32,536 nt of DNA from a virus. The stretch is taken from IMG/VR virus record IMGVR_UViG_3300045988_121526; one strand, written 5' to 3'. Position 1 is the stretch's first letter. Every line of letters begins with the position of its first letter. A program made the position numbers and the translations under genes. The notes beneath the pieces were generated by a model. That model did not search any database, was not told the origin of the DNA, and saw only the letters and a list, made by a program, of their open reading frames with translations. Positions 3,870-29,481 of the stretch are shown one piece after another.

Positions 3870-4485
3870 ACGGCAATACCGTTCCCTTGCCGTGCCGCTC
3901 AACGTGCGGACGGCTGACGGAAGCGCGAACAAGCGCCTTGACACCGATTACTACGTCGAGGGCTACGCATCGACATTCAACGACCCATACGTGCTTTTCA
4001 CCGACTGGGACGGCAACGAGTATCGCGAGATCATCGACCCCGGCGCTTTCGACGGCGCGGACATGAGCGACGTTATCATGCAGTACGACCATGCGGGCAA
4101 GGTTCTCGCGCGCATGAGCAACAACACGCTCATTGTCGAGCCTGACAAGCACGGGCTTTTCATCGCGGCAGACCTTAGCGGCTCTCAGGCCGCGCGCGAC
4201 CTTTACGAAGAGATTACTAACGGCCTTATCACGCGCATGTCGTGGGCTTTCAGCGTGGGCGCGGACGAATACGACCGGGACACGCACACCACGACCATTA
4301 CGCGCGTCAAAAAGGTTTTCGACGTGTCGGCGGTGAGCCTTCCGGCTGACCCAAATACGGAGATTTCAGCAAGAAACCTGCTCAACGGAGTGATTGAGCA
4401 GTCGCGCAAGGAGCTTGCGCGCCGTAAGAGTGCCCTTGCAATCGCGAGGGCGACGCTGGCAATCGCCAAGAGCAGAAAGGTTTAG
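3850..4485 (+). CDS. Prohead maturation protease (HK97 / S78-like)
   Basis: The pattern ...YVEGYASTFNDPY...IIDPGAFDG...MQYDHAGKVLAR...WAFSV... is typical of HK97 prohead proteases. aaggagg RBS. Confidence 0.88.
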   Translation: MPAKPSERQYRSLAVPLNVRTADGSANKRLDTDYYVEGYASTFNDPYVLFTDWDGNEYREIIDPGAFDGADMSDVIMQYDHAGKVLARMSNNTLIVEPDKHGLFIAADLSGSQAARDLYEEITNGLITRMSWAFSVGADEYDRDTHTTTITRVKKVFDVSAVSLPADPNTEISARNLLNGVIEQSRKELARRKSALAIARATLAIAKSRKV

Positions 4486-7698: not shown

Positions 7699-8112
7699 AT
7701 GCTTATCAAGGTTGGCGAAAAGAGCTACGAAGCGACCTTCAACGCGTTCACACCGATTGCCTATTCTCGATGCTTCAACGAGGTTGTCGAGGGCGGGAGG
7801 AAGCGCCCGAAGGACATTGCGGACGCGGTTTCTAAGATCGCCGGTTCTCTCATGACTAGCGACGTGCCCGCTATCGTCCCGTTGCTCGAAATCTTCTACG
7901 CGTGCATCAAGACCGCAACGCCGAAGTTCGATACCGGATTCGATGAGTGGGTTTCTTCCTTCCCATCGGACGCGTACAACTTGGAGCGCAAGGACGGTTG
8001 GGCTTCCGACGTGATGCGCATTGTCGAGGACAACTTTTTTCCTTCGGCGAAAGAGGACGTGGAAGCCGCGCCCGCCGAAGAGGAAAGCGCCGCCGCTGCC
8101 AAGCGAGCTTAG
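7699..8112 (+). CDS. Tail assembly chaperone (G-like)
   Basis: ATG 7699 follows aggagg. 137 aa with an acidic C-terminus, between the major tail gene and the tape measure. Confidence 0.7.
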   Translation: MLIKVGEKSYEATFNAFTPIAYSRCFNEVVEGGRKRPKDIADAVSKIAGSLMTSDVPAIVPLLEIFYACIKTATPKFDTGFDEWVSSFPSDAYNLERKDGWASDVMRIVEDNFFPSAKEDVEAAPAEEESAAAAKRA

Positions 8113-8389: not shown

Positions 8390-11080
8390 GTGGCGGTCAC
8401 TTACAAGGGGCTTGTTATCAAGTTCGGCGGCGATACTACCGAGCTGCAAAGCGCCCTGAAGAAGGTTCAACAGGCATCGCGCGACACCCAAAGCGACTTG
8501 CGCGATATCAACAAGGCGCTGAAGTTCGACCCCGGCAACACCGAGCTGCTAGAGCAGAAGGTAAAGGCTCTCAACTCGGCATACGGCGAGACGAAGCAGA
8601 AGCTTGACGCTTACAAGCAAGCGCTCGCGCAGCTAGAGAGCAAGAAACAGAGCGGCGTGCAGCTCACGGCTCAGGAAGAACGGCAGTACGACAGCCTGAA
8701 GCGTGCGATTATGCAGTGCGAGCGCCAGCTTGACAGCTACGGCAGCGAGCTTGCGGACACGGCGCGCGAAGCCGACGCATCGCGCACGGCGCTTTACAAG
8801 GTGGGTCAGACAATCGAAGACAACGCCGACAAGCTTTCAAACGCCGGGTCTAAGATTTCGAGCGCGGGAACGGCGCTCTCTGGCGGCATCATCGGCGCTG
8901 CCGGTGCGCTTACCGGCCTTGCATCGAGCCAAGAGGAAGCCATACAGCAGAGCGGCCAGCTCGAAACCGCATGGGCGAGCGCTGGCGGCACCGCCGAGCA
9001 AGCATCTTCGACCTATGCGAGCTTCTACCGCATCCTTGGCGATTCTTCGTCTGCCACAGAAGCGAGCCAGAACCTAGCGCGCCTGACAACCAACGAGCAG
9101 GAATTGCAGCAGTGGACGGACATTGCCGCTGGCGCTTACGCCACGTTCGGCGACGCTCTGCCGCTTCAGAACTTGGCGGAAGCGGCGCAGGAGACGGCGC
9201 ACACCGGCACCGTCACGGGAGGTCTAGCCGACGCTCTCAACTGGTCTACGGCATCCGCCGAGCAGTGGAGCGCGGCGCTTTCCGGGCACTCTTCGGCTCA
9301 GGCCGCCTTCAATCAGGCCGTCGCTGAAGGCCAGACGAAAGAAGATGCCTTCAATGCAGCGCTTGCCGCGTGCGGAAGCGAGCAGGAACGGTCGCAGCTC
9401 ATCACCGAGACGCTTACCGGGCTTTACGCCGACGCTGGGCGGCAGTACCAAGAGACGAACAAAGACCTTCTCGCTTCGCGCGACGCGCAGAACGAGATGA
9501 ACCAGAGCATGCAGGAACTCGGCGAAGCGGCAATGCCAGTCAAGACCGCCGTAACCGAGATCGGGACGAGCCTTCTTAACACGCTCGCGCCCGCGCTCGA
9601 AGCCGTAACGGGCTGGTACAAGAATCTAACGCCAGAGCAGCAGACGCTTGTTAACAACCTCGCGCTCGGCGCGGTCGCCTTCGGCGGCGTGACAACCGCC
9701 ATAGGTAAGACCATGGAAGCGGCGGAGGGCGTGGGAAGCGCCTTCAAGACCGCTGGCGAGCTTTGGGGCGGCGCTAAGAAGCTCATGGGCGACACGGGCT
9801 TTCTAAGCAAGATCGGAACCGGCTTCTCTAACATCGTCACCAAGGCGGGCGGTCTTGGAAGCATGCTCGCCGGCACGCTGTCTAGCGGCTGGACGGGCTT
9901 CACCGGTCTTATCGCCGCACATCCTATCGGCCTTGGCGTTGCCGCCGTGTCCGCCGCCGTCGCTGGCCTTACGTGGTTCTTCACGCAGACCGAGACTGGT
10001 AAGCAGATGTGGTCTGACTTCACCGGTTGGATTTCGGAGAAGTGGCAAGCCGTGCAGGATTTCTTCGCTGGCGTGCCTGAGTTCTGGGGCGGAATCTGGG
10101 AGCAGGTCAGCACCGGCGTTTCGGACTTCTGCACCGGCGTTGGCGAGAAGTGGGAGCAGTTGAAGCAAGGAGCTTCCGACACTTGGGAGAACCTGAAGCA
10201 GGGCGCTTCCGATGCGTGGTCGAACATCAAGAACACCGCGCTTGAGTTCGGCGGCGGTCTTGTTGAGGGCGTTTCTAACTGGTGGAACAACCTAACCGGC
10301 AATACCGATTCGGCATTCGGGCAAATCGCTTCCACGGTTCAGAACGACATGAACACGGCTCAGACCGTCGGAAGCTCGGCGGCTGGCGCTCTACAAGCCG
10401 CGATGAACGGCGACTGGGAGACGGCGAAGAGCCAAGCGGCAAACGCCTTCAACGCGATTAAAGACAACATCGGCTCGAAGCTTGACGCTGCCGAGAGCAC
10501 GGCAGTTAGCATCGCAGACCGAATCGGCGACAAGCTGGGATTCCCCGGCCTTGGCTCGAAGGTGCAAGGCGTGTTCGACAGCATCAGGGGCTTCATCGAG
10601 AACCCGATTGAAAGCGCGTGGAACGCGATTTCCGGCATTCCGCAGAAGATCATGAACGCCTTCGGCGGAATCAAGATCAGCATTCCGAAGCCGAAGCTTC
10701 CGCACTTCAACGTGAGCTGGAACGAGTTCGGCCCGATTTCGCTGCCTAGCGTGAGCATCAGTTGGTACGCGCGCGGCGGCTACTTCGATGAGCCTTCAAT
10801 CGTCGGCGTTGGCGAAGCAGGCGGCGAGTTCATCGCGCCAGAGAAGCAGTTGCAAGGCTTCATCGAGACTTCGGTAAACCGCGCCTTCTCGCGGTTCGCC
10901 GACACGCCGAGCCAGCCAGCTAGCGTAGCCGTGACGGTTTACGCCACGGTCGCTGACGGCGTGGACGCATACGAAACAGGCCAGCAAATCGGCGCTGGCA
11001 TCGCAAGCAAGCTGAAGCAAAGGGGGGTGCCAGTTGCAACTAAGACGGACCAGGAACCAGCACGACCGAATCATCTTTAA
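8390..11080 (+). CDS. Tape measure protein
   Basis: 896 aa with a coiled-coil N-terminus, a central hydrophobic Gly/Ala-rich segment and repeated W..L/GASD.W.N.K motifs. It is the largest structural gene after the chaperones. Confidence 0.9.
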   Translation: MAVTYKGLVIKFGGDTTELQSALKKVQQASRDTQSDLRDINKALKFDPGNTELLEQKVKALNSAYGETKQKLDAYKQALAQLESKKQSGVQLTAQEERQYDSLKRAIMQCERQLDSYGSELADTAREADASRTALYKVGQTIEDNADKLSNAGSKISSAGTALSGGIIGAAGALTGLASSQEEAIQQSGQLETAWASAGGTAEQASSTYASFYRILGDSSSATEASQNLARLTTNEQELQQWTDIAAGAYATFGDALPLQNLAEAAQETAHTGTVTGGLADALNWSTASAEQWSAALSGHSSAQAAFNQAVAEGQTKEDAFNAALAACGSEQERSQLITETLTGLYADAGRQYQETNKDLLASRDAQNEMNQSMQELGEAAMPVKTAVTEIGTSLLNTLAPALEAVTGWYKNLTPEQQTLVNNLALGAVAFGGVTTAIGKTMEAAEGVGSAFKTAGELWGGAKKLMGDTGFLSKIGTGFSNIVTKAGGLGSMLAGTLSSGWTGFTGLIAAHPIGLGVAAVSAAVAGLTWFFTQTETGKQMWSDFTGWISEKWQAVQDFFAGVPEFWGGIWEQVSTGVSDFCTGVGEKWEQLKQGASDTWENLKQGASDAWSNIKNTALEFGGGLVEGVSNWWNNLTGNTDSAFGQIASTVQNDMNTAQTVGSSAAGALQAAMNGDWETAKSQAANAFNAIKDNIGSKLDAAESTAVSIADRIGDKLGFPGLGSKVQGVFDSIRGFIENPIESAWNAISGIPQKIMNAFGGIKISIPKPKLPHFNVSWNEFGPISLPSVSISWYARGGYFDEPSIVGVGEAGGEFIAPEKQLQGFIETSVNRAFSRFADTPSQPASVAVTVYATVADGVDAYETGQQIGAGIASKLKQRGVPVATKTDQEPARPNHL

Positions 11081-11771
11081 CGGCACCGACCTATCGAAGC
11101 TGGTTTACTGCAAGGTGCGCCGCCCCATCATGGCGACCGTCAACGCGACGTTCGAGAGCGTGCCGGGGCGGCATGGCGAAGTTTTCAAGAGCGCCTACCG
11201 TGGCGGCTACGACCTTCCCGTTGAGATTTGGCTTAGGACTGAAGACCGCCGCGAGGTCGCGGATATGCGACACAAGCTCGCGGCGGCTCTCTGGACTGAC
11301 GAACCCGCGCCGCTCTACCTTCCCGATGACCCGACGCGCTACCTGCTCGCAATCGCGAGCGGCAGCACCGACCTTGACGAGATCACCGACGATTGCCCGA
11401 CTACAACCGTGACTTTCCATATTGGCGACCCCGACTATTACGGCCAGCGCCGCCGCATGGAGGTTTCGGCGGGCAACGTCTACGTCAACGCTGGCGGCAA
11501 CCGCCCCGCTCATCTGCAAGTGACGGCGAAGCCCGCCGCTGGCAGCACGTGGAGGATTACGAACGTCGATACCGGCGAGTTCGTGGCTGTCAATACGCCG
11601 CTCACGTCTTCAAGCACCATACGTCTTGACATGGCGACCGAGCACGCGACGGTCAACAACCAGACCGCGCCGGTAACGATTGATTCTGATTACTTCGAGA
11701 TAAGCGGGCGGTGCCACCTGAACATCACCAGCGGCACGGCGGTACTAGAGTGGGTGGAACGATGGCTTTAA
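11034..11771 (+). CDS. Distal tail protein (Dit, siphovirus tail component)
   Basis: TTG start after aagggggg, 245 aa, immediately after the tape measure. Confidence 0.7.
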   Translation: MQLRRTRNQHDRIIFNGTDLSKLVYCKVRRPIMATVNATFESVPGRHGEVFKSAYRGGYDLPVEIWLRTEDRREVADMRHKLAAALWTDEPAPLYLPDDPTRYLLAIASGSTDLDEITDDCPTTTVTFHIGDPDYYGQRRRMEVSAGNVYVNAGGNRPAHLQVTAKPAAGSTWRITNVDTGEFVAVNTPLTSSSTIRLDMATEHATVNNQTAPVTIDSDYFEISGRCHLNITSGTAVLEWVERWL

Positions 11772-14323
11772 TTAGACGCATAGGCTTCACCCGCTTCAGC
11801 CGTTGGGGCGACAATCTTGGGCGGCTCACGGTGAGCGCCGCGACGCATACAGACGCGCTGGACGGAACCGACGAGCTGAACATCACGTGCGCCGAAGACC
11901 TCGTGAAGGGCGACCGCGTAGTCTGGATTGACCTTCGGGGCGTTTGCCACGAACACATCGTTGACACCATCGACCGAGTGCACGACGATGACGGCGCGCC
12001 TGAAACGCAAGCCGTCTGCATCAACTCGGTGAACGAGACGTGGGATGACTGGCTGGACGATAAGCGGCCTTCCGGCAGCGTGTCGGTAGCCCTCGCGTCA
12101 ATCCTCGCAGACACGCGCTGGGAGGTCGGCACGTGCGATCAGGGCGGCAGCGCTTCGCGCACCTTCTACCACGAGAGCGTGCGCGAGGGCTTGGCGGGAA
12201 TCATCGAGACGTGGGGCGGCGAGCTTGAAACGCTCATCGTCCACGACGGCGCGAGGATCGTTAGCCGCCGCGTGGGCGTGCGCGCCAAGCGAGGCAACCA
12301 GAGCAGCGCCAAGCGGTTCACGTGGACTAAAGACCTCGTTTCCGTCAAGCGCTCCGTTGCGAGCGACAACCCGAAAACGCGCGTCTACGGATACGGCAAG
12401 GGTGTTGAGACGGAGAGCGGCGGCTACGGTCGCCGCCTTACCTTCGGCGATATCAACGACGGCAAAGACTACGTGGAGGATTCCGACGCTACAACCGTTT
12501 GGGGGCACCCTGACGGCGAGGGCGGCATTCTTCCCGCCGTCGCGTCATACATCAACGAGCAGTGCGAGGACGCGGCGCAGCTCTTGCAGGAAACGAAAGA
12601 CTACCTAGAGCAGGTTAAGGAGCCGAAAGTAACCTATACAGCTTCGGTTATCGACCTATACGCCTTCGGTCGCTCGTGGGAGGGCGTGGGTGTTGGCGAT
12701 GATGTTGCAATCATCGACAAGGGCTTTTCTGCCGAGGGCGTGCGCCTTCATGGCCGCGTGTCTCAGATTGAGCGCGACTTGCTCACCGGCGACGCGACCG
12801 TGACGTTCGGCATGCTTACGGACACGATGGCCGACATGTGGCAGAGCGTCAACGCCGCCCTGAAGAGCAACAGCCAGCAAAACGCGCTATACGACGCTGC
12901 GGCTGGCACGTCGGTATCGTGGCTCATTCAGCTTCAGCAAGCGCTCAACGCTCAGTTCAACGCGGTTGGCACCTACCATGTCGAGACGTTCGAGCTTGGC
13001 GAGATTTGGAGCAACGTACCGCTGAACCCCGAAACGGGTTTGCCGGTCAAGGCGACCGCCGACATGTGGGCTATCAACGTCAACGGGCGCGGCCAGCGGT
13101 TGGCCGCTGGCCTTACGTCAGACGGTCAATGGGATTGGCGAACGTTCTTCACGGGCGGCATGGTGACTGCCGATGTTATCAACGCTGGCACCATGAAGGC
13201 AGACCGCGTGCGCGCCGGTCTGCTCACCGACGAGAAGGGAAACAACTACTGGGATTTGACCAGCGGCGAGTTCTCGCTTTCTGCTGGCGCTAAGCTCGGC
13301 GACACGAGCGTTGAAGACCTTTTTAACGGAATTAACGAACTCGATAAGACGATGGACGGCATAGCCGAAGACGGCATCATAACCGAAGCCGAGCACGCCG
13401 CCGTATCTAAGATCATGCAGACCGTTGAGAAGGAAAGCGCCGACGTTGAAAGCGAGTACACCGCTCTTATCAACAGCGATGACCTGCAAGCTCAGTTCAA
13501 AGCGGTTCTTCAAGCGCAGTATGAAGCGGTTTACAGCGTCAATGGCACGCACGCTAGGCTTGAGCTGATGATTCAGAATGTGCTTGCAACGACAACAGCC
13601 GAAGAGCTGGCGGACGCAATGCAACTCTACGAAATCGCTTACAGCAACTATTCGGACACGCTGAAAACGTACTACTCCGCCGCGCGGCAAGCCCAAAGCA
13701 TGATTGAGCAGAAACAAGCGCAAGACAAGGTGGACGATCTGGACGATTCCCTCACGCAACGTGAGGTTTTCAACCGGCTGACGAACAACGGCGCTACGCA
13801 GGGAATCTACCTAAGCGGCGGTCTGCTCTATATCAACGCTACCTACATCGAAACCGGCACGATCAGCGACCGTCTGGGGCGTAACACGTGGAACCTGAGC
13901 ACTGGAAAGCTCACGACTAACTACATGACCGCGAACAACATAGATGCAAGCGGAACGTTCGAATGCGGTAGCGTTTCAAACCTGCTCAGGATTGCGAGCG
14001 GTGCGGTATACGGATTCGAGAACAGCGAGCAAATCGGAAAGATTGACTTCTCCGCACACTCCTACAACATTGACGATCCGTCAATCAAGTATCGCGGCAT
14101 TCAGATTACGGCAGAAGGCACGGTGCGCATCAGTTCGCCGCAGATTTCGACTGCCGTATCAAGCAATCAGAGTACGACAGCGACCATCTGCACAACGAAA
14201 GATTCGAGTGTCACGTACATTAGCGAGATTAGAGATGACGGAGACGGAACAATTTCTTGGTCTTGGAAAACGCGATCCATCAACTTCAAGAACGGGTTAT
14301 GCACATACTGCGGACTGGACTAG
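11762..14323 (+). CDS. Tail-associated protein (Tal / prophage tail endopeptidase-like N-terminus) with a long coiled-coil and fibre-like C-terminal extension
   Basis: ATG 11762 overlaps the Dit stop. 853 aa, in third position after the tape measure. No sheath gene is present, so the tail is non-contractile. Confidence 0.72.
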   Translation: MALIRRIGFTRFSRWGDNLGRLTVSAATHTDALDGTDELNITCAEDLVKGDRVVWIDLRGVCHEHIVDTIDRVHDDDGAPETQAVCINSVNETWDDWLDDKRPSGSVSVALASILADTRWEVGTCDQGGSASRTFYHESVREGLAGIIETWGGELETLIVHDGARIVSRRVGVRAKRGNQSSAKRFTWTKDLVSVKRSVASDNPKTRVYGYGKGVETESGGYGRRLTFGDINDGKDYVEDSDATTVWGHPDGEGGILPAVASYINEQCEDAAQLLQETKDYLEQVKEPKVTYTASVIDLYAFGRSWEGVGVGDDVAIIDKGFSAEGVRLHGRVSQIERDLLTGDATVTFGMLTDTMADMWQSVNAALKSNSQQNALYDAAAGTSVSWLIQLQQALNAQFNAVGTYHVETFELGEIWSNVPLNPETGLPVKATADMWAINVNGRGQRLAAGLTSDGQWDWRTFFTGGMVTADVINAGTMKADRVRAGLLTDEKGNNYWDLTSGEFSLSAGAKLGDTSVEDLFNGINELDKTMDGIAEDGIITEAEHAAVSKIMQTVEKESADVESEYTALINSDDLQAQFKAVLQAQYEAVYSVNGTHARLELMIQNVLATTTAEELADAMQLYEIAYSNYSDTLKTYYSAARQAQSMIEQKQAQDKVDDLDDSLTQREVFNRLTNNGATQGIYLSGGLLYINATYIETGTISDRLGRNTWNLSTGKLTTNYMTANNIDASGTFECGSVSNLLRIASGAVYGFENSEQIGKIDFSAHSYNIDDPSIKYRGIQITAEGTVRISSPQISTAVSSNQSTTATICTTKDSSVTYISEIRDDGDGTISWSWKTRSINFKNGLCTYCGLD

Positions 14324-14334
14324 GGAGGTATTTC

Positions 14335-14733
14335 ATGGCGACTATTTATTACGTTGCTCACGACCCGCTAAGCAACTCGGAAGCAGTCATTACTGAGTAC
14401 GACAGCGAGCTTCTTAAGAAAGCCGCTGAGGGCGGAATTGTATTCATCGCCGTTGACGATGATGGAAGCCGTTCCATCGTTCCCGTTGACGACGTAAAGG
14501 AGCCTGAGAACCGCGAAGGCTCGTTCACCATCGTTCAGCCCATATACGTCGATGACAGGGTTAGAGCTGTCGTTGACGTATTCGACGCTCTGGCTGCGAG
14601 CGTGCCAGCCGTCGCCGCGAGCGCGGACGTGCAGCCCGTGTCTAGCAAGGCGCGATCTGCTATGAGCTTCGCCGAAGCGCTCGCCGCCCTCCGCGCGCTC
14701 GCTTACGGAACCGGCGAGGAAGGCGGCGAGTGA
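14335..14733 (+). CDS. Hypothetical tail-module protein
   Basis: ATG follows agggagg. 132 aa. No family recognised. Confidence 0.6.
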   Translation: MATIYYVAHDPLSNSEAVITEYDSELLKKAAEGGIVFIAVDDDGSRSIVPVDDVKEPENREGSFTIVQPIYVDDRVRAVVDVFDALAASVPAVAASADVQPVSSKARSAMSFAEALAALRALAYGTGEEGGE

Positions 14734-15734
14734 TGAGCAACACACGGACGCTTGAACTCGATATCTCGAAGGAGGGAACGGGAACCTGCGTCAAGGTGGG
14801 TCAGGGCGACGATGGCGGAACCACCATCAAGGCGCTTATCTACGACAACGGAGCCGAGTTCTCGCTTTCCGGCGCGACGGTGTGGCTCGTGGTGCTTCTA
14901 CCGAACAAGAGAAACTACTATCGCGGCCAGTGCACCGTGAGCGGAAACGCCGCAACCATCACGGTTGACGAATCGAAGCTTTGCAGCGTGTCCGGCTACA
15001 CCGACGAAGCCTACTTCACGATCACGAAGAGCGGTGCAACCTACTCAACGGAGCGCTTCGCTATCGAAATCCTGCGAAGCGCTCTTGACGGCCAGCAGCC
15101 CGCGCAGAACTGGGACGATGCCGTTCAAGACCTCATCGACCGTGGAGAGACGGCGGTAAAGAACGCCAACAGCGCAGCGAGCGCGGCGAACACAGCCGCT
15201 GGTGAGGCAAACACGGCTGCGAGCACAGCGAACAGCGCCGCGACGGCCGCGAACAACGCGGCAGATGCCGCAAACACCGCCGCATCCGCCGCCAACACGG
15301 CGGAGCAGAACGCCGACGCTGCGACCACGGCTGCGAACAACGCGGCATCAGCCGCCAACACCGCCAAGCAGAACGCCGACGAGGCAACATCCAACGCCAA
15401 CGCCGCCGCGAACGCGGCGAACACAGCCGCTTCAAGCGCCAACGCTGCCGCTGCTGCGGCAAATGGCGCGGCAGAGGATGCAACGGCGGCTGCTCAGAAC
15501 GCGCTAAACATCGCAAACTCAATCGCGGCAATCGAACCGCCGTCAGACAGCGAGGTTCAAGAGCTGCGCGAAGAGAACGCGACGCTCGCGACGGCGCTTG
15601 TAGAGCTACAGGACGGCTACATAGTTCTTGGCGAAACGGCGTACATGCCAACGAACAGGCGAAGCGCGCTGTCTGGCGAAACGCTCACCGTCGCCCAGGC
15701 GACCATGAGCGGCGAGACGGCAACGCTCAACTAA
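14733..15734 (+). CDS. BppU-like (baseplate upper protein N-domain-like) fibre protein with an Ala/Asn heptad stalk
   Basis: The N-terminal ~135 aa (LELDISKEG...IKALIYDNG..F.LSGATV...ITVDES...) resembles phage BppU N-domains. About 17 heptads of ANxAAxx follow. TGATG overlap with the previous gene. Confidence 0.65.
   Translation: MSNTRTLELDISKEGTGTCVKVGQGDDGGTTIKALIYDNGAEFSLSGATVWLVVLLPNKRNYYRGQCTVSGNAATITVDESKLCSVSGYTDEAYFTITKSGATYSTERFAIEILRSALDGQQPAQNWDDAVQDLIDRGETAVKNANSAASAANTAAGEANTAASTANSAATAANNAADAANTAASAANTAEQNADAATTAANNAASAANTAKQNADEATSNANAAANAANTAASSANAAAAAANGAAEDATAAAQNALNIANSIAAIEPPSDSEVQELREENATLATALVELQDGYIVLGETAYMPTNRRSALSGETLTVAQATMSGETATLN
15165..15536 (+). repeat. About 17 tandem 21-nt (heptad) repeats encoding ANSAASA/ANTAASA/ANNAADA...
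   Basis: Reading the translation in blocks of 7 keeps Ala at positions 1, 4 and 5 and Asn at position 2 through nearly the whole stretch. Confidence 0.85.
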
Positions 15735-15749: not shown

Positions 15750-16652
15750 ATGGCCGACTTGTCGAAGTTCTCTATCGGCGGAACCGCCTACAATCTGAAG
15801 GATTCTTCTGCGCGCAACACGGCGAACGCCGTAACGACTGCTGAGGAATACGACCGACAGCACAACACAAACTCTTACGCTGGGCGCTCGCTCGCTTCGG
15901 TCTTCGCAAACGAGATCGGGAGCAGCGACGTTTACACATGGCTTCGGAACCGCGTTCGAAGCGCCAACTTCGCCGGTCTTCGCATCGGCGATTACATCGA
16001 CGTTCCCATCACGGCGGGCGCTAACGTGCCGTCGCAGACGGTGCGCTACCGCATCGGCGCTATCGACCACTATTACCAGTGCGGCGACACAGCGAAGGGG
16101 CACCATATCGTCATGGTGCCGCTCGCGCCCGTGAGCGTCACCGGCGACAAGGCATCAAACACCAGCTACCTTCAGTGGCGCGAGACGAACGACAACAACG
16201 GCACCGCCGAGGAAAAGCACCCTTACTTGGTTTCGAAGCTGCACGACTGGGAAATCAACGACTTCCTGCCAGCTCTGCCGACCGCGCTTCAGAACGCGAT
16301 CATGGCGCAGCGCGTGCTTCTCGAAGAGCGCTATTCGTCTTCGGAGAAGCTTACGGAAGCGAGCGGTTGGAGCTGGGCGGACTTGGGCAAGATTTGGTCG
16401 CCTTCAGAGATGGAGGTTTACGGGTGCCCGGTCTGGGGCAGCAAGGGCTACTCTGTCGGCTTCGATAGCCAGTTCCCCATCTTCACCGACACCGCAAGCC
16501 GCATCGCGGGCGGTCGCGTCGATTGGTGGCTGCGCTCCGTCATGGGCGGGTCTTCGTCCAACGCGTGCTATGTCAGCAGCAACGGCACTGCCAGCAACAA
16601 TGCCCCGACGCACGACTGGACACGCCCCCTGCCGTGCTTCCTCCTAGGCTGA
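15750..16652 (+). CDS. DGR target protein: putative receptor-binding tail-fibre tip with a C-terminal variable region (CLec-type ...WWLRS... signature)
   Basis: ATG follows ggaaggag. The last ~43 codons coincide with VR. The C-terminus DWWLRSVMGGSSSNACYVSSNGTASNNAPTHDWTRPLPCF matches the TR-encoded NWWLRSVMGGSSSNACNVNSNGNANNNAPTNDWIRPLP. Confidence 0.85.
   Translation: MADLSKFSIGGTAYNLKDSSARNTANAVTTAEEYDRQHNTNSYAGRSLASVFANEIGSSDVYTWLRNRVRSANFAGLRIGDYIDVPITAGANVPSQTVRYRIGAIDHYYQCGDTAKGHHIVMVPLAPVSVTGDKASNTSYLQWRETNDNNGTAEEKHPYLVSKLHDWEINDFLPALPTALQNAIMAQRVLLEERYSSSEKLTEASGWSWADLGKIWSPSEMEVYGCPVWGSKGYSVGFDSQFPIFTDTASRIAGGRVDWWLRSVMGGSSSNACYVSSNGTASNNAPTHDWTRPLPCFLLG
16514..16641 (+). repeat. 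DGR variable repeat (VR)
   Basis: 128 bp aligns without gaps to 17213..17340 (119/128 identical). Eight of the 9 mismatches are TR-A to VR-non-A. Confidence 0.9.
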
Positions 16653-16663
16653 TAAAATCAGCC
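16647..16663 (+). promoter_or_regulatory. Hairpin ggctga-taaaa-tcagcc just 3' of VR (includes the target stop codon); candidate DGR target-recognition hairpin
   Basis: 6-bp perfect stem with a 5-nt loop, 6 nt after the end of VR/TR homology. Confidence 0.4.
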
Positions 16664-16680
16664 GTACTAGGTACTGGTCT

Positions 16681-16740
16681 GGCGCATGCCTTGCGCATGC
16701 GCCTTTGCTTCCCCGCGCGAAGCGCGGGAGAAGCAATTTT
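16681..16740 (+). terminator. Two consecutive GC-rich hairpins; the second is followed by a T-run (terminator of the tail/target operon)
   Basis: Hairpin 1: ggcgcatgc-cttgc-gcatgcgcc (16681..16703) followed by ttt. Hairpin 2: gcttccccgcgc-gaa-gcgcgggagaagc (16707..16734, one bulge) followed by aatttt. Confidence 0.6.
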
Positions 16741-16772
16741 CAAAAATCACGGAGGGGGGGGGATGTTGAAAA

Positions 16773-17183
16773 TTGAGCGGCGTATATGTGCGGAACCGCA
16801 ACCTAAGCTCGTTCGAGTATTTCAACACTGCTGTTTCGATTCGAAACGACGTGACGCGTCTTGTGGCTTCGTCGGCGGTGCCGAAGTCTTATCGCTTCAT
16901 CCTCGCCGTCCCCATGGCGGAGACGGCGCGAAGCTTGGTGTTCAATCTGGTTAAGGCTGATGCCTTCTACCCGAACACGGCTCGCAACGTCGAAGAGCGC
17001 AAGCATTACATGACGCTTGCGATAGCGGACTTGCAGCAGCTATACCAAGACCTGCAATGCCTTATGGCTATGAACCTGCCGGTGAAGGTCGCGCGGTTCG
17101 AAGCGATATCAGAGAGCATAGAGAGCGACATAAAGCTGATAAAGGGCGCTCGCGCGGGCGTGAAGCTCATCGGGAAGGGGTAA
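16773..17183 (+). CDS. avd: DGR accessory variability determinant (Avd-like)
   Basis: 136-aa basic, apparently all-helical ORF between VR and TR, matching bAvd in size and position. The start is uncertain (TTG 16773 or GTG 16788), downstream of the ggag+G9 tract. Confidence 0.72.
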   Translation: MSGVYVRNRNLSSFEYFNTAVSIRNDVTRLVASSAVPKSYRFILAVPMAETARSLVFNLVKADAFYPNTARNVEERKHYMTLAIADLQQLYQDLQCLMAMNLPVKVARFEAISESIESDIKLIKGARAGVKLIGKG

Positions 17184-17184
17184 A

Positions 17185-18330
17185 ATGGTCGCGCGTTGTC
17201 CCTTGGAAATCATCGCGTCAATTGGTGGCTGCGCTCCGTCATGGGCGGGTCTTCGTCCAACGCGTGCAATGTCAACAGCAACGGCAATGCCAACAACAAT
17301 GCCCCGACGAACGACTGGATACGCCCCCTGCCGTGATTCCCAAGCCTTGCCAGACCGTGCGGCCATAAGCGCCGCGCGCCGTGCATTTGAGGAAGGAAGG
17401 GGCGACCGTCGGGCGCTAGCCCGTAAATATGCACCCCGCGACGGTTGCCGTTCGCTGCTTGCATGGCGCGGCTTCATCGAGTTTGACTTGTTCGAGCGCG
17501 GCAAGCTTCGTCACATATGCTCTGTCCACTTCTCGGAGCGCGTGATACAGAAGTCTTTGAGCCGTCACGCCCTCGCTCCCGCGATCTGGCCTACACTTAC
17601 CGAGGGATGCGCCGCGAACGTCAAAGGGCGCGGCACAGACTACGCGATTCGTCGGATGAAGCGCCAGCTTGTCGAACACCACCGAAAGCACGGAACGGAA
17701 GGCTACATCTTGCAGGTCGATTTCGCGGACTACTTCGCAAACATCGACCACGACGCTTGCAAGCGCCTTATCGACCGCGCCATTGACGATGAGCGGGTTA
17801 AGCGCGTCATGGCAGACCAGATAGACGCTCACGGAGCGCGCGGCTTGGGTCTTGGCAGCGAGCCTAACCAGATTCTAGCGGTCGCCCTGCCGTCTCCGGT
17901 TGACCATCTGATGCTGTCCCTTCCGGGCATCTTGGCAAGCGGGCGCTACATGGACGATAGCTATTGCATCGCTCTTGACAAGCAGACGCTTTGGGACGCG
18001 CTTTCGCGCATCGAATCGCTCTGCGACGATCTGGGAATCATCATCAACCGCAAGAAGACGCGCGTTGTGAAGCTCACGCGCGGATTCACGTTCCTTAAGA
18101 AGAGGTTTTCGTATGGCGAGGGCGGAAAAGTTGTTGTTCGCCCGTGCCGTTCCTCCGTGACGCGACAGCGGCGCAAGCTGAAGAAGCAAGCCGCGCTGGT
18201 CGCCAAAGGGGTTATGACCGTCGAGCAGGTCAACCAATCCTACCAGTCGTGGCGCGGCAGCATGAAGCGCCTGAACGCGCACGAGACGGTAAAACGCATG
18301 GACGCGCTCTATAAGGAGCTTTTCGGCTAA
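17185..18330 (+). CDS. DGR reverse transcriptase (start uncertain: ATG 17185 reads through TR; TTG 17347 lies 7 nt after TR)
   Basis: RT motifs seen: GKLRHICSVHFSERVIQKSL, NVKGRGTDYA, ILQVDFADYFANIDH, LGLGSEPNQ (DGR motif-4 position) and GRYMDDS (YxDD). It is adjacent to TR and avd. Confidence 0.9.
   Translation: MVARCPLEIIASIGGCAPSWAGLRPTRAMSTATAMPTTMPRRTTGYAPCRDSQALPDRAAISAARRAFEEGRGDRRALARKYAPRDGCRSLLAWRGFIEFDLFERGKLRHICSVHFSERVIQKSLSRHALAPAIWPTLTEGCAANVKGRGTDYAIRRMKRQLVEHHRKHGTEGYILQVDFADYFANIDHDACKRLIDRAIDDERVKRVMADQIDAHGARGLGLGSEPNQILAVALPSPVDHLMLSLPGILASGRYMDDSYCIALDKQTLWDALSRIESLCDDLGIIINRKKTRVVKLTRGFTFLKKRFSYGEGGKVVVRPCRSSVTRQRRKLKKQAALVAKGVMTVEQVNQSYQSWRGSMKRLNAHETVKRMDALYKELFG
17213..17340 (+). 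repeat. DGR template repeat (TR)
   Basis: Cognate of VR. In the VR frame it carries 10 AAY codons and ends in TGA. It lies 30 nt after the avd stop. Confidence 0.9.
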
Positions 18331-18354: not shown

Positions 18355-18384
18355 AAGCCCTCGCACTAGCGGGGGCTTTTTTGT
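18355..18384 (+). terminator. Rho-independent terminator after the RT
   Basis: aagccctcgc-acta-gcgggggctt followed by tttttg. Confidence 0.75.
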
Positions 18385-18402: not shown

Positions 18403-18852
18403 ATGATGGCACTTACCGAAGACGAAGAGGGCATGGTTCGCGCGATCATCGCAATCTTCAAGGCTCAAGCCCCGTCCCTATCGTCGGACGTTGCGGCCAA
18501 GTGCTCCGTGCTTTTCGCGGAGTGGGACGGGGACGGCCACGCCTACGCAGAGGGCGAGCGCGTGAGTTACGAGGGAGTTCTTTACGTATGCCTTCAGGCG
18601 CACACGTCGCAGCCCGATTGGTCGCCCACGGCAGCTCCGAGCCTTTGGGCGAAGGTCGTTGAGTATGCAAGTGGCGGTGATGACCCGTCGAGCATTCCCG
18701 AGTGGGTGCCGCCGAGCAACGAGAACCCTTACCCGAAGGGCGCTGTCGTGCGCCATAACGGCAAGGTCTGGGAATCCCTCGTTGCTAACAACGTCTGGGA
18801 GCCGGGGGCTGTCGGAACCGAAACCGTCTGGCGAGAGGTGACGGAGGGCTGA
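18403..18852 (+). CDS. Carbohydrate-binding protein with two CBM5/12-like repeats
   Basis: Repeat 1: Y.EGERVSYEGVLYVCLQAHTSQPDWSPTAAPSLW. Repeat 2: YPKGAVVRHNGKVWESLVANNVWEPG...W. Both are chitin-binding-type aromatic motifs. Confidence 0.7.
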   Translation: MMALTEDEEGMVRAIIAIFKAQAPSLSSDVAAKCSVLFAEWDGDGHAYAEGERVSYEGVLYVCLQAHTSQPDWSPTAAPSLWAKVVEYASGGDDPSSIPEWVPPSNENPYPKGAVVRHNGKVWESLVANNVWEPGAVGTETVWREVTEG

Positions 18853-21410: not shown

Positions 21411-22979
21411 CTATTTTTGACACGTGCCAACGACAACAAACCAGTTTTTCGATACTCTAACGATGCAAGTATCAAGCTGGATAGCCGCGCGGTTGGCGGT
21501 ACTGGTGGAGTTCGCCGTTTTTCTCATAAGCTCCACCATGCAAGAATTAGTCGAACTGTGCCCTTCGGGGCATGGTTCGGCTTTTTTCTTTTTCGGGCTG
21601 AAATCGTTTCCGTAGTGGTCGAACGCGAAGTAAACGTTAAGCGTCTTCCCGTCAATTTCCGCGAATCGAACAAATGAATTTAAGATCACTTCGGGCGTTA
21701 GGTTTTCCGCCGCATCATCGAGCCACAGCATGAGTTCGTCAGCGCCGATGTTAAACGCTTCTTCTCGCTCGGCTATGCGCAGCTCCGCTTCAAGCTCGCT
21801 TTTGCGCTGCTTCAGCTCTTCGGTTCGCTCTCTTCCGCCGGGTGGCGCTATCCCGTCTTCTATGGCTTGCCAGATTCGTTCAAAGGTGCGGTCAATCCGC
21901 TTCAGCTCTTTCTTTATCGCATAGCTTCTTGATTGTTCCTTCGGCTGCTCTTTCTGAAACTCAACCATCCCGCTTGCTATGCGTCGCCTAACGTCTTCGC
22001 GCGCAACGGCTTGCAAGGTCATGTCGCAAACAACGTCTTCTATGAGATCACGCCGCACGGTTCGGCGGCACTTGCGGCACTTGTAGTAGTGATACGTCGC
22101 GCCCGTGCACGATGTGCCGCTTGTGCCCGCCATTGGCGCGCCGCACTTCGAACAGTAGAGCTTGCCGGACAATGGAAACTCTAGGGTTGAGTTGACCCTG
22201 CGACGCGGCCTATGCCGGTCGCCAAGTATGTTGCTAATCATGTCTTGCTCGGCTTGCGTCCATATTGCGGGCATCCCGTCTTCGACTTCGTGCCCAGCGT
22301 ATTTGTAGACACCTGCATTCTGAACGCGCTTCAATAGCTTTGTGACGGTATCCTGATTGAACTTTGCTCCGCGCTTGCTTCGCTCGGCGCTCACGGCGCG
22401 CACGATATCGGCGACAGAGCTACCGGCAAACAGCATGTTCTTCATCTTGCGAAGCACAGACGCTTCGCGCTCATTGATTACGTAGCGGCCTTCTACGATA
22501 TCCCACCCGTACAGAGTGCGCCCGTTCGCCATGCACCGCTGCGCGTTCTTCTGGATTCCGTCTCTGATGCGCTCACTATCAAGCGCGCTTTCATACTCGG
22601 CGAGAACTTCGAGCATGCCGAGCTGCAACACGCCGCTTGACCCGCTGGAAATGTCCTCGCCAGCGTATAGGATTTCTACGCCAGCCTTGCGAAGCATGAT
22701 GCGCGCAAGCGACATTTCATCACGGTTGCGCATGATTCGCGTAACTTTGTAGATCACCACATAATCAAATAGCCCGTGTCGGGCATCGCTCATCATCCGC
22801 TGGAACTCGGCACGGTCGATGTTTCGCCCCGTCTGTGCATAGTCGCAGTATTCATGCACGACCTGCAAGCCCTCACGCTCGCAGTACGCGCGCGAGTTCT
22901 CAACTTGTATCTCTATGCTTTCCGAACGCTGATTGTGCGAGCTAAAGCGCGCGTATATAGCGGCTCGGTTCTTCACCAT
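21411..22979 (-). CDS. Large serine recombinase (integrase)
   Basis: AAIYARFSS..Q (catalytic Ser region), a resolvase-like N-domain, a recombinase domain, a Cys-rich zinc ribbon (CSKCG...YYKCRKC) and a coiled coil. ATG 22979 follows aggggtg. Confidence 0.9.
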   Translation of the reverse strand: MVKNRAAIYARFSSHNQRSESIEIQVENSRAYCEREGLQVVHEYCDYAQTGRNIDRAEFQRMMSDARHGLFDYVVIYKVTRIMRNRDEMSLARIMLRKAGVEILYAGEDISSGSSGVLQLGMLEVLAEYESALDSERIRDGIQKNAQRCMANGRTLYGWDIVEGRYVINEREASVLRKMKNMLFAGSSVADIVRAVSAERSKRGAKFNQDTVTKLLKRVQNAGVYKYAGHEVEDGMPAIWTQAEQDMISNILGDRHRPRRRVNSTLEFPLSGKLYCSKCGAPMAGTSGTSCTGATYHYYKCRKCRRTVRRDLIEDVVCDMTLQAVAREDVRRRIASGMVEFQKEQPKEQSRSYAIKKELKRIDRTFERIWQAIEDGIAPPGGRERTEELKQRKSELEAELRIAEREEAFNIGADELMLWLDDAAENLTPEVILNSFVRFAEIDGKTLNVYFAFDHYGNDFSPKKKKAEPCPEGHSSTNSCMVELMRKTANSTSTANRAAIQLDTCIVRVSKNWFVVVGTCQK

Positions 22980-23075
22980 GCTAAAATCACCCCTAGAGCA
23001 AGCGCGGTAAAGCGCTCTGCTTCTTGACCAGCCCCGCGCGCGTTCCGCCAAGTTCCCGTGCGGGGTTTTCTTTTT

Positions 23076-28084: not shown

Positions 28085-28306
28085 ATGGGCGGCAAGTACG
28101 AGGTTCGCGGCGCGATGAGCGGACTTTGCCCGTTCTGGGACGGTCAATTTACCAACTCGCTTGCTCATGCCCTGCTGCTGCTCATCCGATTTTCTCTGAA
28201 GTACCGAATCGTTCAGTTCAACATCAGGAAAGAGCCGTTGGATTGCGCGGACTGCCACGACGATAACTGCCCTTCGCGGATTCGTGAAAACTGCGAGTGG
28301 TCATGA
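28085..28306 (+). CDS. Hypothetical protein (73 aa, Cys-containing C-terminus)
   Basis: ATG 28085 lies 2 nt after the previous stop. The gene overlaps the recombinase start. Confidence 0.45.
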   Translation: MGGKYEVRGAMSGLCPFWDGQFTNSLAHALLLLIRFSLKYRIVQFNIRKEPLDCADCHDDNCPSRIRENCEWS

Positions 28307-29481
28307 TGGGCGTTAAGGTCAAGCGCGGCGCAGATGGCGTGTTCGAATGCCGTTTGTACCTAGGTCGCAGCGTGGACGGCAAGGCTATTCGGCCTTACAA
28401 GCGGTTTCCTAACGCGGCTACCGAAGAGGAAGCGCAAGCCCTCGCCGAGACGTGGGCGGCTTACGTGACGGCTGACGGAACGGTTAGAAGCGCCCGCTTG
28501 ACCGATTTGCTCGAAGACTACGTGCAACTGCGCGAGCGCAACGGCGCAAGCCCGAACAGCATTAAGAGCTATCGGCTGTTCTGCCGCTACGTCGCACGTT
28601 ACCTGAAGACCGCAAACGCACGCGATCTTGGCGTTATGGACTTCAACCGCTTTGAGCAACGCTTGCTCATGGCGAAGGACGAAGGCGGGCAAGGTCTTTG
28701 CCGCAATAGCGTTATCAACGTCCACAACTTCTTGCGCGGAGCTTATAACCACTTCGTAGACGCTGGTATTTGCGACGCTAACCCGCTGGTGTACGTCGCC
28801 AAACCGTCGCCGGAACGGCACGAAGCTTCAGCGCTCACCGAATGGGATTTCGAGGGCTTCAACGAGAAGCTAGAGGGTGCGCTTAGCAAGGAGATCAAGA
28901 CGAAGGCCGATTACCGCGCCGCCGTCTACGCCTTCGCTTCGTGGCTGTCGCTCGTTACCGGCATGCGCGTTGGCGAGGTGTGCGCGGTGCAGCGCATCGA
29001 CGTTAAGCGCGTCTTGTCTTACGTCCACGTCGGCGGCAACGTCATTGAGGGCAAGGGCAAGAAGCCCTATCGCCGAAACGTCACCAAAGGCCGCAAGTGC
29101 CGCAACGTCGCGCTTACGCAAGACGATATCGCGGTCATTGATGCCTTCACGAAGCTTCAGAGCGCCGTTCTGGGACGTTTGGGCGCAGATTGCCCACTGG
29201 TGACGCTAGACGGCTCATATATGCGCCCAACGACGATTTCACGGGCTTTCAGCCGCATACGCGACGCGTGCGGACTACCGCGAGAGATCACGTTTCACAG
29301 CTTGCGTCACACGCACGCTTCATGGCTCATCGCCAACGGCTGCGACCTGAAGACGCTATCTGAGCGCATGGGGCACGCGGACGAAGCAACGACGCTTCGA
29401 ATCTACGGCCACCTGATGCCCGGACGCGACGCGGCGGCGGCTCAGCTCTTCAGCGAAGCGAAGCGCCGCGCGGCGGGTTAG
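28303..29481 (+). CDS. Tyrosine recombinase (phage-integrase family)
   Basis: C-terminal catalytic region ...GMRVGEV...HSLRHTHASWLIANGCDLKTLSERMGHADEATTLRIYGHL (R..H.LRH..Y pattern) with an N-terminal SAM-like core-binding region. Confidence 0.88.
   Translation: MMGVKVKRGADGVFECRLYLGRSVDGKAIRPYKRFPNAATEEEAQALAETWAAYVTADGTVRSARLTDLLEDYVQLRERNGASPNSIKSYRLFCRYVARYLKTANARDLGVMDFNRFEQRLLMAKDEGGQGLCRNSVINVHNFLRGAYNHFVDAGICDANPLVYVAKPSPERHEASALTEWDFEGFNEKLEGALSKEIKTKADYRAAVYAFASWLSLVTGMRVGEVCAVQRIDVKRVLSYVHVGGNVIEGKGKKPYRRNVTKGRKCRNVALTQDDIAVIDAFTKLQSAVLGRLGADCPLVTLDGSYMRPTTISRAFSRIRDACGLPREITFHSLRHTHASWLIANGCDLKTLSERMGHADEATTLRIYGHLMPGRDAAAAQLFSEAKRRAAG

Follow-up and report, generated by a model that had tools for sequence, protein, structure and literature searches.

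A diversity-generating retroelement, probably inactivated by a 331-bp deletion, at the tail-fiber tip of a likely Collinsella siphovirus

Diversity-generating retroelements (DGRs) are well known from gut phages. We describe a DGR in a 32,536-nucleotide stretch of viral DNA (IMG/VR record IMGVR_UViG_3300045988_121526; hereafter, the window), most likely located at the tail-fiber tip of a temperate siphovirus of Collinsella (Coriobacteriia). On the plus strand, the target gene with its variable repeat (VR), avd, the template repeat (TR), and the reverse transcriptase (RT) gene follow one another at the distal end of the tail module, in the order given by an earlier note made from the sequence. 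That note had called the cassette complete, but 331 bp are missing between the TR and the core of the RT, so that the spacer is cut short at its 3' end and the RT gene lacks its start codon and codons 1 to 81. Judged by homology to Bordetella phage BPP-1, this deletion probably inactivated the DGR in the recent past, and the VR records earlier diversification. Features are listed in Table 1.

Table 1. Features of the DGR and its surroundings, in window positions
Feature	Position	Strand	Remarks
BppU-like baseplate/stalk protein	14730..15734	+	Heptad Ala/Asn repeats; Pfam BppU_N, E = 1.2e-6
DGR target gene	15750..16652	+	300 aa, intact; VR in codons 255-298
VR	16514..16641	+	Codons 255-298 of target; 120/128 identical to TR
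IMH-like G+C-rich stretch	16623..16636	+	14 nt, CGCCCCCTGCCGTG, at VR 3' end; read from sequence
Hairpin across target stop codon	16643..16671	+	Core GGCTGAT-AAA-ATCAGCC; DNA fold -7.5 kcal/mol, z = -4.4
Terminator-like hairpin	16681..16703	+	Between target and avd; conserved CTTGC loop; terminator scan; -12.4 kcal/mol, z = -4.7
Third hairpin	~16713-16729		Between target and avd
avd-like accessory gene	16773..17183	+	136 aa, TTG start, pI 9.6, intact
Chimeric ORF	17185..18330	+	381 aa; ATG 1 nt past avd stop; codons 1-93 are TR and spacer in a non-VR frame
TR	17213..17340	+	Direct repeat of VR, 128 nt
Shortened spacer RNA region	17341..17464	+	First 124 of the ~211 nt from TR to RT start in intact relatives
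Deletion junction	17465..17471	+	Lone remaining copy of 7-bp direct repeat GGCGCGG; BLAST segments of five relatives overlap here
RT remnant	17465..18330	+	Residues 82/83-369 of the intact 369-aa RT; RVT_1; phrog_1423, 1.7e-52; bRT 8ub7_A, E = 3.5e-9
Intrinsic-terminator-like hairpin	18355..18378	+	3' of RT gene

Target gene and repeats

The genes recognized upstream by the earlier note were found as it had described them, with Dit (11034-11771) and Tal (11711-14323) followed by the BppU_N protein, whose gene contains 21-nt repeats (15162-15472). This stalk protein is the probable anchor of the target protein, itself the probable receptor-binding tip; in two relatives (P0057 and P0063), the BppU-like protein and the target are fused into one polypeptide. 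Among 50,697 phage records, no close relative was found by DNA, the sole match being 130 bp within the CBM gene.

The 300-aa target frame with its C-terminal VR was as reported in the note. Its nonvariable part was said there to belong to no recognized family and to look uncharacterized, which does not hold: residues 142 to 294 match Pfam PF19789 (DUF6273; 41.9 bits against a cutoff of 23.5), and Collinsella prophages carry hundreds of close homologues. In total, 698 target homologues, mostly of 300 aa, came from Collinsella, Olsenella, and Adlercreutzia, and a deep search with DUF6273 representatives returned 791 matches. DUF6273 has already been published as a C-type-lectin-like DGR target domain (PMC10743442, PMC11792537). 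An AlphaFold model of the target (25-sequence alignment) had a mean pLDDT of 59.7, with residues 188 to 287, in the VR-bearing C-terminal half, below 50; a Foldseek search with this low-confidence model and a profile search of the PDB yielded noise only, and earlier HHpred attempts with DUF6273 did not reach Mtd (PMC10743442).

The 128-bp repeats lie where the note had placed them, with an identity of 120/128 rather than 119/128. TR adenines account for seven of the eight mismatches (Fisher p = 6e-5), and six of these seven affect the first or second position of AAY codons. Read in the VR frame, the TR contains 10 AAY codons, with 25 of its 27 adenines in codon positions 1 or 2. The single non-adenine mismatch (T to C) is at 16621. 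Another difference, at 16637 (A to C), directly follows the putative IMH-like stretch; because it is fixed alike in all six genomes with an identical TR, we regard it as a difference of the IMH/IMH* type rather than a product of mutagenesis. No further copy of the VR was found within the window. The hairpin across the target stop codon matches the position of the target-recognition hairpin of BPP-1 and has an equivalent in most of the diverged clades, where the stem sequences differ; in the terminator-like hairpin that follows, the loop is kept across clades while the stems vary.

The deletion, the reverse transcriptase, and the spacer RNA

The candidate Avd, which the earlier note had picked out as a basic helical protein, was predicted by AlphaFold (pLDDT, 85.9) to form four helices in a bundle, so that an Avd-type fold is predicted directly beside the TR. 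Foldseek matched this model best to 2gsc and 2rld and aligned it to bAvd (4dwl_C) with a TM score of 0.74. The depositors describe 2gsc and 2rld as conserved hypothetical or S23 ribosomal protein family proteins; we take both to be members of PF05635. Pfam matches were sparse: 3 of 11 family members matched PF05635 (best E value, 3e-4), one weakly matched PF22296 (bAvd; E value, 0.17), and the window's own protein had no match at an E value below 0.01. Searching the PDB with a profile of the Avd family gave no match by sequence; among solved structures, the link to Avd came from the structural comparison. The protein is, however, 29% identical (E value, 3e-15) to the annotated Avd of Roseburia phage Shimadzu (orf23).

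The RT motifs read by the earlier note (QVDFADYFANIDH, LGLGSEPNQ, and RYMDDS) are present in the frame ending at 18330. The remnant retains fingers, palm (YMDD), and thumb, lacks a start codon of its own, and is 100% identical to residues 83 to 369 of the RT of the relative L026. On sequence matches, it appears closest to DGR RTs, in line with the class assigned in the note: among solved structures, bRT (8ub7) scored best (47 bits; a group II maturase reached 25 bits), and the best phage matches were the annotated DGR RTs of Shimadzu and of Faecalibacterium phages. An RT of another class (group II intron, retron, Abi, or DRT defense), with the repeats an ordinary duplication, would fit the NCBIfam scan, which gave no DGR-specific match and a group II intron RT/maturase model as its best (E value, 1.5e-15), as well as the weak generic and DRT matches that were all PADLOC returned, and motif 4, which reads LGSEPNQ in all 71 distinct RTs of the family, against a canonical DGR motif of [ILV]GxxxSQ. 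Yet every curated model that matched scored far under its family cutoff (bits/cutoff: group II, 57/300; retron St85, 22/235; Drt3a, 21/200; Drt2, 19/390; Drt5, 17/550), which leaves the RT without assignment to retron, Abi, DRT, or group II enzymes at this level. With a gene of predicted Avd fold and AAY codons beside it and adenine-specific mismatches in 74 related loci, a non-DGR origin is so improbable that we give it next to no weight.

Five close relatives (L082, L026, L003, L005, and L006) hold 331 bp that are missing from the window at 17464|17465. The gap is seen in base-by-base alignments to L026 and L003 and in BLAST against all five, where the two matched segments overlap by 7 nt, and in intact L026 the repeat GGCGCGG stands at either end of the missing stretch (8715-8721 and 9046-9052). 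The lost DNA comprises 87 nt from the 3' end of the spacer and, from the RT gene, the start and codons 1 to 81. RT residue 95 accordingly lies 694 nt past the avd start in the window, versus ~1,000 to 1,085 nt in nearly all other related full-cassette loci. A rearrangement was rejected, as neither the missing 331 bp nor its peptide was found elsewhere in the window. An insertion in the relatives was also rejected; the extra DNA encodes an RT N terminus conserved to bRT and Shimadzu. Intact RT residues 34 to 82 align to bRT residues 12 to 63, residues 1 to 82 are as conserved as the remainder across the 71 distinct RTs, and conservation from residue ~30 extends out to the RTs of Shimadzu and the Faecalibacterium phages.

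Alternatively, the deletion could be an artifact of assembly or sequencing, or be confined to a minority of the population, in which case the natural phage would carry a complete, active DGR. The junction was seen in this one sequence only, the fusion is absent from the 120 best RT homologues, and avd and RT residues 83 to 369 are 100% identical to those of the closest relatives; because of that identity, the deletion, if real, must be very recent. Against an artifact, a 7-bp repeat is far below assembler k-mers, which makes repeat-induced collapse unlikely, and replication slippage or microhomology is well known to delete DNA between short direct repeats. The flanks, moreover, are colinear with the five relatives over ~13 kb (86 to 97% identity in aligned segments), with no other rearrangement. 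The junction had no exact match among the viral and metagenome contigs scanned for it; since the window itself went unmatched too, this result is uninformative on frequency and counts for little. We consider an artifact or minority variant unlikely.

Taking the deletion as real, the frame that the earlier note had treated as the RT gene is a chimera in which codons from the TR and spacer are joined in frame to the remnant, with RT sequence from residue ~94 onward. Past 17347, it contains no in-frame ATG, GTG, or TTG. Coverage of this frame stayed at or below 80% for each of its 120 best homologues and was 75% for nearly all, which match residues 95 to 381 only. The window thus holds no intact, translatable RT gene with an N-terminal extension.

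The spacer is the second casualty. It measures 206 to 220 nt in 32 distinct relatives. Covariation supports a conserved structure: 97.4% of cells were paired, versus 33 to 47% in slid controls, and 12 pairs showed compensatory changes (0 of 500 shuffles were equally good). Of four covariation-supported helices (3, 4, 5, and 7), the window has the 5' strands alone, their 3' strands being deleted together with the whole of a fifth. A complete structured RNA 3' of the TR, which by analogy with BPP-1 would act in cis, is therefore lacking here. A TR:spacer primer duplex like that of BPP-1 (TR117-129:Sp47-56), sought by eye, gave no pairing that held across clades.

Some features speak for a cassette that still works, either through the 381-aa chimera or through another DGR RT-Avd of the host acting in trans. 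The catalytic core is intact and identical to that of the relatives, the frame is kept across the fusion, the start codon lies where coupling to translation of avd would put it, and the substitute N terminus is strongly basic like the native one (pI, 11.0 versus 11.4); at least one Collinsella MAG (assembly CAUEMA01) holds two related cassettes (L028 and L062). Since the chimeric frame is open and its ATG stands behind a purine-rich stretch, a fusion protein whose catalytic core is whole might be produced; the priming site may also survive in the 124 nt of spacer that remain. Both observations count against inactivation. On the other side, the new N terminus bears no similarity to the native one, which in bRT binds Avd, contacts the template, and positions the template:primer duplex (bioRxiv 10.1101/2023.10.23.563531); the 3' half of the covariation-supported spacer domain is absent in cis, and the analogous deletion in BPP-1 (3' stem-loop, Sp 96-140) nearly abolishes cDNA synthesis (bioRxiv 10.1101/2023.10.23.563531). 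An in-frame fusion is expected by chance in one case in three. Continued function is, in our estimate, less likely again than an artifact.

Diversification among relatives and known systems

The cassette is one of a large family of Collinsella/Coriobacteriia prophage DGRs, common and evidently active. Members L001 to L082 have the same cassette, with 50 to 94% target identity; named hosts include Collinsella aerofaciens, C. stercoris DSM 13279, Olsenella sp. Marseille-P4559, and Adlercreutzia muris. Across 74 related loci, 846 of 887 TR/VR mismatches fall on TR adenines, A making up 19.4% of TR sites. The TR of the window is identical in the five relatives that hold the missing 331 bp, and the six genomes carry six different VRs, variable at 23 of 27 A sites and 2 of 101 non-A sites. 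In L026, L003, L005, and L006, Avd is also 100% identical to that of the window, and the VRs differ at TR-adenine positions. Among 41 close homologues, the TR AAY codons show 7 to 13 residue types each, against a mean of 1.6 elsewhere. The family demonstrably diversifies at TR adenines, and six VRs on one TR indicate recent activity in human-gut Collinsella prophages. Lesions also occur: in L035 and L052, the VR and TR have collapsed to one copy and avd is lost, and the RT of L028 has a 2-nt frameshift.

The closest characterized relative is the DGR of Shimadzu (LR596903.1; orf22 tail fiber, orf23 Avd, orf24 RT), which is active, as read analysis showed adenine-specific VR variation (bioRxiv 10.1101/575076). 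Gene order and sizes are alike, both Avd proteins have 136 aa, both targets are tail proteins with a VR at the C-terminal end, and both phages are temperate phages of the human or rodent gut; the RTs are 48% and the targets 39% identical. Shimadzu is a myovirus with a P2-type baseplate, a Firmicute host, a second VR in another gene, and an intact RT, whereas the window represents a siphovirus of an actinobacterial host with one VR, a 5'-truncated RT, and a shortened spacer.

The likeness to BPP-1 (mtd-avd-TR-Sp-brt) proposed in the earlier note was borne out in the order of parts and extends to a VR at the 3' end of a receptor-binding gene, a G+C-rich IMH-like end, a hairpin past the VR, a four-helix-bundle Avd, and a structured spacer between TR and RT. 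Sequence identity is low, however, and BPP-1 differs in its target (Mtd versus DUF6273), spacer length (140 versus ~211 nt), and motif 4 (IGSLTSQ versus LGSEPNQ); the equivalents of its bRT N-terminal extension and 3' spacer domain are those deleted in the window. DUF6273-type DGR targets are also known from Faecalibacterium phages Lelie, CP11, Roos, and Pioen and from the "tentaclin" phages nd4 and nd12. These differ in N-terminal modules and host phyla, the window having a short, 300-aa target after a BppU-like stalk (fused in some relatives).

Proposed mechanism and meaning

On the BPP-1 model, an RT-Avd complex in the intact relatives would bind an RNA made up of the avd 3' end, the TR, and the ~211-nt structured spacer and would reverse-transcribe it with misincorporation opposite TR adenines. 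The cDNA would then replace the VR at the 3' end of the DUF6273 tail-tip gene, guided by the G+C-rich IMH-like stretch and the stop-codon hairpin, so that ten AAY codons on the receptor-binding surface would be randomized. In the window, deletion between the two GGCGCGG repeats would have removed 87 nt of spacer, the RT start, and 81 RT codons. This would have left the target, avd, and TR whole, the VR fixed, and the RT core attached in frame to sequence translated from the TR and spacer. The earlier note had the phage apparently able to rewrite its host-recognition surface; by analogy with BPP-1, this copy, without RT start, RT residues 1 to 81, and 3' spacer, probably could not.

As gut-phage DGRs are well known, the cassette adds a host clade (Collinsella/Coriobacteriia), not a mechanism. 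What it offers is a natural deletion that hits exactly the two elements found essential by Bordetella cryo-EM, the RT N-terminal extension and the 3' spacer domain, beside relatives otherwise identical in avd, TR, and RT core, and hence a ready comparison on how general the Bordetella requirements are. The ~211-nt spacer, with its covariation-supported structure, can be compared with that of BPP-1. For annotation, an open RT frame with all catalytic motifs and a good TR/VR pair is not sufficient to call a DGR complete.

Three kinds of lesion (the window's 331-bp microhomology deletion, the collapse in L035 and L052, and the frameshift in L028) allow the speculation, rather doubtful as yet, that DGRs of these prophages are repeatedly switched off by small structural lesions, fixing the tail tip to one receptor specificity as soon as a lineage is established in a host. 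More remote still is a working, Avd-independent RT formed with the TR-encoded N terminus of the chimera. If DGRs are indeed switched off in this way, the window would present a "frozen VR" allele arisen in nature, almost isogenic with relatives that are active.

Cassette and genomic surroundings

The window (32,536 bp; G+C content, 58.6%) is a temperate siphovirus genome, and the four parts of its diversity-generating retroelement (DGR) sit between a BppU-like gene and a CBM gene (see the table). An earlier note had read the cassette as a complete phage DGR in the order target-VR, avd, TR, RT. All four parts and the direct repeat were recovered, and the repeat pair is real and near-identical, with 120/128 matching positions on recount in place of the 119/128 first reported. 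The cassette is not complete, however: 331 bp present in related loci are missing, including part of the TR-to-RT spacer and the 5′ end of RT.

Features of the window and of the intact spacer (window positions unless a locus is named)
Feature	Position	Remark
Large terminase, portal, capsid protein		encoded in window
Tape measure		encoded in window
Dit	11034–11771	
Tal	11711–14323	
BppU_N protein	14730–15734	
Target ORF	15750–16652	VR at 3′ end
VR	16514–16641	
Hairpin over target stop codon	16643–16671	z = −4.4
Hairpin between target and avd	16681–16703	
Hairpin between target and avd	16713–16729	
avd-like ORF	16773–17183	136 aa; pI 9.6
TR	17213–17340	
Spacer, remnant	17341–17464	
Spacer, intact	L026 8591–8801	and equivalents in other loci
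CBM_5_12 protein, C39-like peptidase, GH25/LysM endolysin		3′ of DGR region

Bordetella bRT was the best solved-structure match of the RT core, and the nearest phage records were annotated DGR RTs (Roseburia phage Shimadzu, 48%; Faecalibacterium phages and nd12, 30 to 31%), with scores against retron, DRT, Abi, and group II models far under cut-offs. These results bear out a DGR-type RT, and an RT of another class is effectively excluded. The canonical motif 4 of DGR RTs is [ILV]GxxxSQ (IGSLTSQ in bRT); it reads LGSEPNQ in 71/71 distinct family RTs (window 17830–17850), yet this family shows strong adenine-specific diversification. LGSEPNQ is a family-wide variant, compatible with activity.

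The 136-aa ORF proposed as Avd had no match in a Pfam search; among 11 members of its family, PF05635 was reached weakly by three and PF22296 (bAvd) by one (E 0.17). Its predicted structure is a confident four-helix bundle (pLDDT 85.9), best matched by 2gsc, 2rld, and Bordetella Avd (4dwl), the first two of which belong to the PF05635 family, and it shared 29% identity (E 3e-15) with Shimadzu orf23, an annotated Avd of equal length. Its basic pI, fold, structural matches, and similarity to orf23 uphold the assignment.

Elsewhere, the genome has genes for two site-specific recombinases: a large serine recombinase of 546 aa (21411–23051, minus strand) and a tyrosine integrase of 394 aa (28297–29481, plus strand). 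A protein of 149 aa (18403–18852) that carries two CBM_5_12 carbohydrate-binding modules lies directly 3′ of RT and 5′ of the lysis genes; it keeps its position in two related loci (L001, L082) and may be an accessory adhesin or lysis-associated. The BppU-like gene contains 21-nt (heptad), Ala/Asn-rich tandem repeats (15162–15472), probably a coiled-coil stalk; in two homologous target proteins (P0057, P0063) the heptad repeat continues directly into the DUF6273 target as a single protein. Another homologous target (P0001, 394 aa; L001 10001–11185, GCA_029782595.1) has two internal tandem duplications of ~47 residues each, which are either genuine or a product of misassembly.

Diversification in the window and its family

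Seven of the eight TR/VR mismatches lie at TR adenines, which account for 27/128 TR bases (Fisher p = 6e-5), and six of these seven occupy the first or second position of AAY codons (ten in TR, in the VR reading frame). The mismatch at 16637 (TR A, VR C) is identical in all six genomes with the common TR and lies directly 3′ of a 14-nt G+C-rich stretch, CGCCCCCTGCCGTG; on both grounds we take it for a fixed difference of the IMH/IMH* type and not for a product of mutagenesis. The remaining mismatch (16621) is T→C.

Close target homologues number in the hundreds, and a genome scan yielded 80 loci, almost all from Collinsella and other Coriobacteriia. Where a TR/VR pair could be recognised (74 loci), 846/887 mismatches fall at TR adenines (TR A content, 19.4%). 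In 41 homologues with ≥85% identity outside VR, each TR AAY codon showed 7 to 13 residue types, nearly all within the NNY repertoire, against a mean of 1.6 (maximum, 5) elsewhere. Six genomes, the window included, carry an identical 128-nt TR and six different VRs, in which 23/27 A positions are variable versus 2/101 non-A positions. This comparison across genomes is the counterpart of the read-based check proposed in the earlier note, and it shows recent DGR activity in the window's lineage.

The stop-codon hairpin recurs at the equivalent place, with different stem sequences, in most diverged clades. Between target and avd, the upstream one of the two hairpins keeps a constant CTTGC loop on stems that vary among clades; the pair may act as terminators or belong to the 5′ boundary of the DGR RNA. 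Just 5′ of the avd TTG start, a purine-rich stretch holds a G9 homopolymer (16753–16761; G8 in L026 and G9 in L003, two close relatives), which is possibly slippage-prone.

The 331-bp deletion and its probable consequences

Matches of RT homologues in related loci always start at residue 95 of the window ORF, a point ~1000 to 1085 nt from the avd start in nearly all full-cassette loci versus 694 nt in the window. When L026 and L003, the closest relatives (Avd, 100% identical; RT, 99 to 100%), were aligned to the window base by base, a clean 331-bp gap appeared between 17464 and 17465. BLAST against five close relatives over ~13 kb (86 to 97% identity across aligned segments) returned the identical gap, with segment pairs overlapping on 17465–17471 in each. 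Because GGCGCGG stands at either end of the missing stretch in intact sequences, the gap has the look of a deletion that ran from one 7-bp direct repeat to the other; the 331 bp were not found elsewhere in the window. An assembly artefact is unlikely, since repeats of 7 bp are not long enough to cause misassembly and the gap flanks are colinear with the relatives.

The missing stretch accounts for the final 87 nt of the spacer and, on the RT side, for the start codon and 244 nt of coding sequence. From the intact RT (L026 8802–9908, 369 aa), residues 82/83–369 are kept at 100% identity. The 381-aa window ORF opens at ATG 17185, reads TR and spacer in a frame other than that of VR, and has no in-frame start codon 3′ of 17347; it is a chance joining of the RT core to an upstream open frame, put in frame by the deletion. 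Nearly all of the best 120 database homologues match residues 95–381 alone, and none covers >80% of the chimera.

In the cryo-EM study of bRT-Avd-RNA, the N-terminal extension provides the contact surface for Avd and contributes to placing the template:primer duplex; catalysis by bRT depends on Avd, and deleting the 3′ stem-loop of the BPP-1 spacer (Sp 96–140) nearly abolishes cDNA synthesis (bioRxiv 10.1101/2023.10.23.563531). Residues 34–82 of the intact RT align to bRT residues 12–63. Over the 71 distinct family RTs, conservation of the N-terminal 82 residues equals that of the remaining protein, and from residue ~30 on it extends to RTs of only 30% identity. The family spacer (206 to 220 nt) contains invariant blocks (e.g., GAGGAAGGAAG) and is a multi-helix domain with covariation support (97.4% of cells paired versus 33 to 47% in shifted controls; compensatory changes at 12 pairs; 0/500 shuffles as good), from which the deletion takes the 3′ strands of four helices and the whole of a fifth. 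By homology with the bRT system, loss of the RT N-terminal extension and of the spacer 3′ part would each be expected to be disabling, and the window's DGR copy is probably dead. A working chimeric RT, or complementation in trans, is highly improbable, because a conserved subdomain and a cis RNA structure are both lost.

Apparent lesions were also seen in other Collinsella loci of the family. L035 (~7775–7902) and L052 (~4253–4380) each have one 128-nt copy in place of VR and TR, and relative to L032 they lack the 612 bp between the two, avd included; this is either a second, independent DGR loss by VR/TR recombination or a repeat-induced collapse in MAG assembly. Compared with L011 (99.4% identical), L028 lacks 2 nt at ~9400–9420, which shifts the frame just 5′ of LGLGSEPNQ and gives a 226-aa RT product; the L028 MAG (CAUEMA01) also contains a second related cassette (L062).

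Relation to known DGRs

By its TR/VR pair, adenine specificity, RT type, Avd fold, and target domain, the cassette belongs to the DGR class, but it falls short of a complete DGR in two required parts, RT and spacer, neither of which is intact. It works, or worked, like the DGR of Bordetella phage BPP-1 and, above all others, like that of Shimadzu, in which multi-allelic variation at TR-adenine positions amounts to about 2% of reads. No DGR description specific to the Collinsella/Coriobacteriia host clade turned up in the literature searched; the DGR as such is of a known kind, and within that literature the host clade is the new element. The family spacer structure may be worth setting beside the spacer architecture of BPP-1. 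The window's copy is chiefly of use in two ways: as a deletion allele that arose naturally and has active, nearly isogenic relatives, and as a caution for annotation.
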